Source: Escherichia coli
GTDB lineage: Bacteria; Pseudomonadota; Gammaproteobacteria; Enterobacterales; Enterobacteriaceae
Length of the DNA: 64,000 nt
NCBI RefSeq assembly: GCF_003334405.1
Contig: NZ_QOWM01000001.1
Strand: one strand, 5' to 3'
Under the pieces are notes generated by a model. It was not told the origin of the DNA. It made no database searches and saw nothing but the letters and a program-made list of their open reading frames with translations. The translations under genes and the position numbers were made by a program. Shown here piece after piece: positions 37,891 to 38,106 of this stretch. Numbering within the stretch: the stretch's first letter is position 1; every line of letters starts with the position of its first letter.

Positions 37891-38106
37891 ATCGCAGATA
37901 GCAAAAAAGCGCCTTTAGGGCGCTTTTTTACATTGGTGGGTCGTGCAGGATGACTCGCTTCGCTCGCCCTTCGGGCCGTCGCCGCGAGCGGCTCCGTTGT
38001 TTCGCTGCGCTCAACTCAAACCTGCTGCAGGTTCGAATCTTTGAGTATCGCAGATAGCAAAAAAGCGCCTTTAGGGCGCTTTTTTACATTGGTGGGTCGT
38101 GCAGGA
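37891..38106. repeat. 60-bp perfect direct repeat (37891-37950 and 38047-38106) containing terminator hairpin plus tRNA-Lys 3' end, bracketing a 96-bp GC-rich insert (37951-38046)
   Basis: Both copies read atcgcagatagcaaaaaagcgcctttagggcgcttttttacattggtgggtcgtgcagga; only the second continues into a complete tRNA-Lys. The insert carries the inverted repeat gctcgc...gcgagc around cccttcggg and a T-arm-like gcaggttcgaatc. Confidence 0.8.

Follow-up and report, generated by a model that had tools for sequence, protein, structure and literature searches.

A duplicated tRNA-Lys 3' end beside lysV in Escherichia coli, read as a unit of the tRNA-linked repeat (RtT) family

Identity of the element downstream of lysV

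In this study, a stretch of 64,000 nt of Escherichia coli DNA (assembly GCF_003334405.1, contig NZ_QOWM01000001.1; hereafter the window) was investigated for a short repeat that duplicates the lysV tRNA-Lys gene's 3' end. We observed that this segment is very probably one unit of the tRNA-linked repeat (TLR) family, which is the RtT family of Rfam, and that it closes the valU-lysV tRNA operon on the 3' side. This is a previously described element, as it is in Rfam, is annotated by the Prokaryotic Genome Annotation Pipeline (PGAP) and belongs to the TLR family described by Rudd in 1999. TLRs were first seen downstream of tyrT by Egan and Landy in 1978, and Rudd in 1999 recorded 22 of them at ten loci of K-12; their hallmark is that the 18-19 bp at their 3' end repeat exactly those that end the upstream tRNA or rRNA, and none of them has a known function (Stenum et al. 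2021, PMC8144298).

In the window, the hallmark is displayed by positions 37934-37951, which are identical to the last 18 nt of lysV (38090-38107). The conserved core of the family, consisting of the P1 hairpin, the CCCGNAGGG hairpin, the P3 hairpin and the GAGUMAUCC junction, is also present, and our core model matched it at 37945-38005 on the minus strand (31.4 bits, E = 4e-5). The Rfam scan returned a full-length RtT RNA (RF00391, model positions 1-130) at 37934-38059 on the minus strand, which corresponds to one TLR, with 46.7 bits against a gathering score of 45, a small margin. Among the 5,426 complete E. coli genomes that were searched, the features at the matches read xapR, RtT small RNA (sRNA), tRNA-Lys and tRNA-Val; since the RtT sRNA is listed among them, PGAP already annotates the element at lysV, and this label stands at the locus in thousands of RefSeq E. 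coli genomes. In K-12 MG1655, we found the same 264-bp spacer between lysV and xapR with one single-nucleotide polymorphism, as well as an identical unit behind lysQ, where the lysT operon ends beside nadA. The RefSeq record of K-12 MG1655 has no feature annotated at the lysV unit.

Architecture of the repeat and of the 156-bp unit

The perfect direct repeat comprises 61 nt, with copies at 37891-37951 and 38047-38107 and a start-to-start spacing of 156, as obtained from the repeat search and rechecked base by base. An original prediction, made from the sequence of the window, had reported the same perfect repeat with 60 bp, one too few. Only about (64000^2/2)/4^61, or ~1e-27, such pairs are expected in a random 64-kb sequence, so the repeat is not a product of chance. 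On the minus strand, each copy consists of the final 18 nt of tRNA-Lys (AUCCUGCACGACCCACCA) and the AUGU trailer, followed by a hairpin (AAAAAAGCGCC-CUAAA-GGCGCUUUUUU) and 12 further nt. The terminator hairpin and the tRNA-Lys 3' end had both been noticed before, the latter as 17 nt instead of 18, and it was rightly stated that the proximal copy alone runs into a whole tRNA, which ARAGORN and Rfam confirmed. With a repeat of 61 nt, the insert between the copies spans 37952-38046 and has 95 nt, not the 96 bp first given, and its GC-rich nature (62% GC) stands. The spacer from lysV to xapR amounts to 264 bp in total, with the end of xapR at 37825.

The operon is read on the minus strand. Its promoter-like site lies at 38262-38289 (TTGACT-16-TATAAT, 11/12 matches in the promoter scan) and is followed by a single tRNA-Val(UAC) at 38169-38244, detected by ARAGORN and Rfam, and by lysV, a tRNA-Lys(UUU) at 38090-38165 (ARAGORN; Rfam, 79.2 bits). 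The 156-bp unit then consists of 43 nt (AUGU, the terminator and 12 nt; 38047-38089), the 95-nt body and the 18-nt tRNA-Lys end. The hairpin of the proximal repeat copy is terminator T1 (38059-38085), called from its fold and from an experimentally defined transcript end (PMC4176162). Since the unit ends in the tRNA 3' end, which is then followed by an identical trailer and terminator, a perfect repeat of 61 bp results; the family hallmark is thus found here in a lengthened form, because the trailer and the terminator also belong to the repeating unit.

The body is built as a mimic of a T-arm. It contains an antisense copy of the tRNA-Lys T-arm (38027-38039, GAUUCGAACCUGC on the minus strand by direct reading), followed by a sense T-stem 5' strand with half a T-loop (38016-38025, GCAGGUUUGA as compared with GCAGGUUCGA in tRNA-Lys), the four helices Pa, P1, P2 and P3, which stand in for the rest of the T-loop, and then AUCC, the T-stem 3' strand, the acceptor 3' strand and ACCA. 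Put differently, an inverted T-arm copy is followed by tRNA positions 49-76, into whose T-loop a 63-nt module is set between positions 58 and 59. Other E. coli alleles have UUCGA at the sense T-loop half, where the window has GCAGGUUUGA. The T-arm-like gcaggttcgaatc pointed out earlier proved to be an exact copy of tRNA-Lys positions 49-61 at 38027-38039, though on the strand opposite lysV, and for this reason it is an antisense T-arm on the transcribed (minus) strand. A single GGA was counted in the lysV unit by direct reading.

On its 3' side, the unit continues from the helices through GAGUC into AUCC and the rest of the duplicated tRNA 3' end (37934-37951), and then into the same trailer and terminator T2 (37903-37933 together), all of the latter within the distal repeat copy. 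The hairpin of T2 (37903-37929) is identical to T1 and has symmetric A6/T6 arms, so that the TLR is flanked by two intrinsic terminators. Given this symmetry, T2 could also stop the convergent xapR transcript. Both terminators were missed by a simple promoter and terminator scan, probably because the A/T arms lengthen the stem at the expense of the T run; hence, the terminator calls are based on the fold and the published mapping and not on the scan.

Open reading frames between the repeat copies do not exceed 44 aa. A 28-codon arginine-rich frame with a TTG start crosses the TLR (37928-38014, minus strand); RRPEGR occurs both in this frame and in tpr, annotated as a 'protamine-like protein' in the tyrT TLR (L003 1588-1677, minus strand). 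A peptide gene in the Lys TLR is not favoured, as the RRPEGR likeness probably follows from the conserved GC-rich core and no start signal was seen.

RNA structure and covariation

When both strands were folded, as had been recommended, the minus-strand RNA of one unit reached -65.4 kcal/mol with z = -4.5, and the plus strand reached z = -2.8. A small structured RNA had been one of the readings first offered for the insert, and it is essentially right, as Rfam and our covariance model both recognize the insert as an RtT/TLR structured element.

Four helices were placed in the body. Helix Pa (37999-38015; GUU-GA-GC GCA GC-GA-AAC) has tandem G.A pairs and shows three compensatory pairs among the Lys-type TLRs of nine genera. 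Helix P1 (37977-37996; CG-GA-GCCG CUCG CGGC-GA-CG) is paired in 96.9% of the cells of 103 distinct TLRs, while helix P2 (37966-37976; GCCC-GAA-GGGC), with its GNA triloop, is the most conserved motif of the family on comparison. Helix P3 with its GA flanks (37954-37965; GA-GC GAA GC-GA-G) is paired in 96.2% of cells and displays 31 distinct stems. The inverted repeat gctcgc...gcgagc and the element cccttcggg, both described before, are indeed present; the relatives favour a different pairing on the minus strand, namely P1 and P2.

Our own covariance model of the short core (P0, P1, P2 and P3, with P0 being the outer helix formed with the tRNA 3'-end copy; 59 positions) was run on 99 sources and gave 117 matches, among them the one at lysV described above. 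Across the 103 distinct TLR rows, standard pairs occupy 89.5% of cells, whereas controls in which the partner was slid by 1-3 columns were 26-50% paired, with a maximum of 50.5%. Changes on both sides were observed in 14 of the 20 pairs. P1 shows a compensatory change from GCCG/CGGC to GCCA/UGGC in L033. P2 is nearly invariant, and the middle base of its triloop is A, U or C, with G in two Alcanivorax copies; because this middle base varies, a GNA triloop fits. P0 shifts along with the tRNA, reading GGAGGAU/AUCCUCC for Arg and GGAAGAU/AUCUUCC in Hafnia, and G.U pairs are confined to the transcribed (minus) strand. RNAalifold applied to a MAFFT alignment of the Lys-type units misaligned P1 and P3 and gave little covariation, so a structure-aware model is needed. 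Independently, R-scape with CaCoFold has given covariation support for the RtT helices (PMC8250186). We conclude that the core folds into helices that covary across genera.

Distribution and copy number in E. coli

The long Lys-type unit was counted in the same set of 5,426 complete genomes. It adjoins xapR, at the lysV locus, in 1911 genomes (35%) and nadA, at the lysQ locus, in 2511 genomes (46%); in total, 3239 genomes harbor it somewhere, at 1-5 places per genome. Both loci are occupied in approximately 1,180 genomes, and no long Lys-type unit was detected in approximately 2,190 (~40%). As it is missing at lysV in about two thirds of E. coli genomes, the unit is not essential there.

At lysV, the unit count is 0, 1 or 2, with exact unit boundaries. 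Strain RM9513 (L006) has none and differs from the window in lacking exactly 156 bp and in 3 mismatches over 314 positions; the window has one, and strain DETEC-P1056 (L004) has two. Two units are also found at lysQ in strain B1.H1.18 (L005). The comparison across strains, which had been proposed as a check, therefore disclosed E. coli strains without the 156-bp unit and, in the records examined, no island between the copies. It had been reasoned that an identical arrangement in essentially all genomes would reduce the locus to a fixed neutral duplication; instead, the unit is polymorphic, and the variants at lysV are variants of unit number and not occupied or empty attachment sites. The suggestion of a tandem duplication was essentially right, as the 156-bp unit behaves like a tandem repeat that is found in E. 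coli in 0, 1 or 2 copies.

In a small sample, variants with UUUGAG and with UUCGAG were seen at both lysV and lysQ, which is what gene conversion between the two loci would give. This process probably transfers sequence between the copies at lysV and at lysQ, which in K-12 are identical, and the 61-bp repeats would allow units to be gained and lost through unequal recombination or replication slippage.

The flank of lysV is variable even where no TLR is present. In O157:H7 EDL933 (L127 6586-7122), a FlxA-like gene and a yfeR pseudogene lie beside lysV, with neither xapR nor a TLR unit.

Relatives and age of the element

A scan for the core motif GCRACGRCCCGWAGGGYGA in one genome per species returned at least 120 loci. 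Among the matches listed, the cores of Enterobacterales end in the 3' end of tRNA-Lys, tRNA-Tyr, tRNA-Arg(ACG), tRNA-Pro or 5S rRNA, and in every tRNA case the nearest upstream gene is the same tRNA. Of the 70 cores with an upstream tRNA (Lys, Tyr, Arg or Pro), 58 terminate in 16-19 nt identical to their own upstream tRNA's 3' end, and the exceptions are mostly visibly decayed copies or contig ends.

Citrobacter sp. FP75, Enterobacter sp. MGH 24 and a Klebsiella sp. also have the 156-nt unit with its two terminators, and the Klebsiella sp. harbors three tandem units at 156-nt spacing in addition to single units elsewhere. Mixta has a 154-nt version, and 170-nt units with other trailers were found in Hafnia, Rosenbergiella and Acerihabitans, the trailer being duplicated in Hafnia and Acerihabitans. 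Since Citrobacter sp. FP75 displays the orthologous locus gltX-valUXY-lysV-TLR-xapR, and the unit of Enterobacter sp. MGH 24 adjoins an xapR ortholog, the element at the lysV-xapR position predates the genus Escherichia.

Shorter relatives were noticed in the lysT operon of K-12, where each long spacer after a tRNA-Lys contains a short TLR (L001 1755-1922, 1978-2144, 2282-2448 and 2569-2737), made of P1, P2, P3 and the tRNA-Lys 3' end, and lacking Pa and the antisense arm. Rfam's RtT model gives them 54-60 bits, for which it takes the T-arm of the real tRNA as their 5' half, and PGAP leaves them unannotated. In the genome labelled 'Escherichia coli strain SCPM-O-B-8794' (L118-L121), XapR and GltX reach only 79% and 83% protein identity with their counterparts in the window, and this genome is probably not E. 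coli sensu stricto.

Transcription and processing

According to Agrawal et al. 2014, transcription starts 9 nt upstream of valU, the operon transcript has about 438 nt and ends at T1, and the terminator is removed by RNase P, which cuts 2-3 nt after the lysV CCA (PMC4176162). Read-through of T1 gives rise to the 5S-linked TLR RNA RrB, which starts 3 nt past the 5S end and stops 3 nt past the repeat, and the repeat was proposed as a nuclease signal for RrB (PMC8144298). In the window, the context after the TLR (CCA, AUGU and hairpin) is identical to the context after lysV.

By analogy with rrA, rrB and rrF, the TLR unit would be transcribed only upon read-through of T1 by RNA polymerase. The duplicated tRNA 3' end, with AUGU and the hairpin, would then present RNase P or RNase E with a cleavage site identical to that of the real tRNA, and cutting at the two sites 2-3 nt after CCA would give an RNA of approximately 115-156 nt with a tRNA-like CCA end. 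We infer that a Lys TLR RNA may arise in this way, from read-through and release by the tRNA-processing nucleases.

Other observations in the window

An ES036 (CssrF) sRNA was matched by Rfam at 20807-20849 on the minus strand, with 40.9 bits against a gathering score of 37.6. The tRNA-Val before lysV is single, and K-12 has valU, valX and valY (a 242-bp alignment gap). Similarly, tRNA-Ala is single at 40944-41019, and EDL933 also has one there; K-12 carries alaX and alaW at this position. At the tRNA-Val and tRNA-Ala loci, either the tandem copy number varies or the assembly has collapsed the repeats.

Discussion

This study identifies the duplicated tRNA-Lys 3' end beside lysV as the mark of a TLR unit, and several observations weigh against this assignment or against a role for the unit. 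The E. coli Lys-type unit is a weak member of its family, with 46.7 bits as compared with 80-137 for other members, and decay has left little of its outer helix, in which the TLR 5' end pairs with the tRNA 3'-end copy; the marginal Rfam score is due to this decay of P0. The presumed inclusion of the lysV unit among Rudd's 22 derives from its sequence in K-12, from the match to Rfam and from PGAP's label, and not from the list itself. The alignment behind our covariation figures was fitted to the structure under test and hence leans towards it, though the slid controls came out far lower. Moreover, the absence of the long Lys-type unit from about 40% of genomes argues against an important function and excludes an essential one. 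In the published Northern analysis, a terminator probe saw only the full-length valU transcript and large species of the lysT operon, and no small species (PMC4176162). Because the transcript ends at T1 and the probe saw the full-length valU species, read-through into the TLR is at best minor.

Some of these points would also suit neutral tandem-duplication junk, that is, a DNA repeat kept by recombination and gene conversion, with no role as RNA and a structure that is inherited and not selected. Its polymorphic presence, the decayed outer helix of the E. coli Lys type, the little or no T1 read-through on Northern blots (PMC4176162) and a family lacking any known function (PMC8144298) are all in agreement with such a repeat. 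Nevertheless, P1 and P3 have kept their pairing over many double changes, in different genera and with different tRNA types, only the transcribed strand admits G.U pairs, and the RtT helices have the covariation support already mentioned (PMC8250186). Again, the 5S-linked TLRs are transcribed, processed and bound by Hfq and CsrA in vitro (PMC8144298), and the position at lysV has been kept since before the split of Escherichia and Citrobacter. We consider a purely neutral repeat rather unlikely.

Another explanation concerns the origin of the core, in which the Pa-P1-P2-P3 module is, or was, a small mobile structured element inserting after TTCGA in T-loop-like hairpins and near 5S 3' ends, with the lysV unit as a fixed copy that was later amplified by recombination; the core would then not be a passive product of duplication. 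One indication comes from Enterobacter sp. Bisph1 (L012 14818-14892), in which a precise 74-nt second module sits at GATTCGA^ in the antisense T-loop of a Lys TLR, giving a unit of 231 nt. Its uninterrupted, empty-site homolog is found in another genome (L033), and the nested insert closely resembles the 5S-linked module of Brenneria roseae (local-alignment score 97 over 71 nt). This nested insertion suggests that the module can insert. The same junctions (TTCGA, module, AUCC) recur in Tyr, Lys and Pro TLRs, the core module also sits inside partial 5S 3' ends, and high-copy, tandem, intergenic 74-nt copies of the core exist in Alcanivorax and Pseudomonas-group genomes. However, the clear nested event is a single one, with neither a transposase nor any other mobilising gene beside it; no TTCGA junction is present in the short TLRs of the lysT and arg operons, and the Alcanivorax-type copies score weakly, at 23-28 bits with the core covariance model. 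Insertion alone also leaves unexplained why an intact tRNA always precedes the disrupted partial copy. We hold this explanation to be quite unlikely; if it were true, the lysV unit would be what remains, now fixed, of a mobile RNA or DNA module aimed at stable-RNA genes.

The 74-nt repeat was observed in the marine gammaproteobacteria Alcanivorax sp. 24 (L058-L072) and Alloalcanivorax (L074, L101-L106) and in some Pseudomonas (L045, L077, L080), for instance at L062 720-870 and L069 3641-3796. It is intergenic, high in copy number and often tandem, and it reads AAAAAAUUGCCGGGAGCAAUUUUU, P1 hairpin, CCCGAAGGG and UGA-CCGCC-AUGGA-CGGCGG-UCA. The P3 loops of these repeats carry GGA motifs (AUGGA, CAGGGAUG, and AUACAAGGAUGUAU in L043), which match the CsrA/RsmA-binding consensus. 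No Rfam family matched the Alcanivorax-type 74-nt repeats.

That the unit could be a decayed second tRNA-Lys gene, a tandem lysV copy that lost its 5' part and gathered mutations, was among the first suggestions. It agrees with the presence of positions 49-58 and 59-76 in sense together with a trailer and a terminator, and with the tandem repetition of Lys tRNA genes in the lysT operon. Only positions 49-76 are represented, though, and the 5' part of the unit aligns to positions 1-48 no better than shuffles do (Lys, 10 against a mean of 11.4; Tyr, 12 against 12.2), so the unit is not a decayed whole tRNA gene. Further, the 63 nt between positions 58 and 59 are not tRNA-like and share homology with the Tyr, Arg, Pro and 5S TLR cores, no intermediate with a D-arm or anticodon arm occurs among 15 Lys-type units, and ARAGORN detected no tRNA within the TLR unit. 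Such an origin is very improbable.

A duplicated tRNA 3' end is typical of tRNA-targeted integration, and the repeat had been called a classic footprint of site-specific integration or excision. An integrative element, be it a phage, an island or a satellite, would have duplicated the lysV 3' end, the 95 bp being a remnant after excision or decay, and the variable flank of lysV, with the FlxA-like gene replacing xapR in EDL933, might be quoted in its favour; a direct repeat that includes the tRNA 3' end is, however, shared by attachment sites and the TLR family and hence does not discriminate between them. We rejected the scar, which is barely conceivable, given that the whole spacer has 264 bp with no integrase or cargo, that in the examined records no island but only 0, 1 or 2 whole 156-bp units were seen between the copies, that an identical unit follows lysQ, that Tyr, Arg and Pro tRNAs and 5S rRNA are followed by homologous cores, each with a 3' end to match, that the same locus is occupied in Citrobacter, and that the insert has no phage matches, its plasmid matches being mostly to megabase-sized records.

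In summary, the lysV unit is a described, annotated and dispensable member of the TLR family, and our analysis removes the false lead of a tRNA integration scar. In this family, first described more than 45 years ago (1978), a homologous module takes as its own end that of whatever stable RNA lies before it. Our study adds the population frequencies of the long Lys-type unit, the hold of the 3'-end identity rule and of helix covariation across genera, and a mobility lead, in that one nested insertion hints that the module can move. The exact 0-, 1- and 2-unit alleles could serve as natural knock-outs.

Comparison with known systems

With the TLRs of K-12 (Rudd 1999, per PMC8144298), the lysV unit shares the 3'-end hallmark, the location in a tRNA operon and, as the same copy is present in K-12, the sequence itself; nothing substantive differs. 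The RtT RNA (rttR), from the 178-bp repeats of the tyrT-tyrV operon (Egan and Landy 1978; Bosl and Kersten 1991; RF00391), belongs to the same Rfam family. The tyrT units and the lysV unit are alike in the antisense T-arm, the sense T-arm 5' half, the module with P1, CCCGAAGGG and P3, the duplicate of the upstream tRNA 3' end, the tandem arrangement and the strand, which is that of the tRNA. They differ in the tRNA (Tyr vs Lys), in length (178 nt vs 156 nt) and in score (133-137 bits vs 46.7). The lysV unit, in addition, has a decayed outer helix and a P1 with a tandem G.A extension, and an RNA product of the Lys unit is only predicted. Every lysV unit contains an intrinsic terminator, whereas no such hairpin is visible in the tyrT spacer examined; termination at tyrT is Rho-dependent. 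The short TLRs inside the lysT and arg operons differ from the lysV unit in having no antisense T-arm, no Pa and no terminators after them.

The attL/attR sites of integrative elements resemble the lysV repeat as direct repeats of a tRNA 3' end with one copy on a complete tRNA. Unlike them, the lysV repeat extends 43 bp past the tRNA, has 95 bp, and neither integrase nor cargo, between its copies, and belongs to a unit found at two loci and in tandem arrays. The 3'ETS-leuZ RNA resembles the proposed Lys TLR RNA in that tRNA-processing nucleases release it from the 3' external region of a tRNA operon; it lies before the terminator and base pairs with RyhB and RybB, whereas the lysV TLR lies beyond the first terminator.

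A parallel in layout is offered by rrA, rrB and rrF, which lie between the dual terminators of rrnA, rrnB and rrnD (PMC8144298) and, like the lysV unit, show the order of stable RNA, T1, TLR with a 3'-end copy, and T2. Here the upstream RNA is 5S rRNA, and for these TLRs expression was demonstrated, as was binding of Hfq and CsrA in vitro; the 19 tRNA-operon TLRs score <0.01 in a CsrA-binding predictor (PMC8144298). Their core is homologous to that of the lysV unit, as displayed by the core-model matches in L121, L046 and L018, and for them a model of read-through followed by nuclease processing at the duplicated 3' end has been published (PMC8144298).

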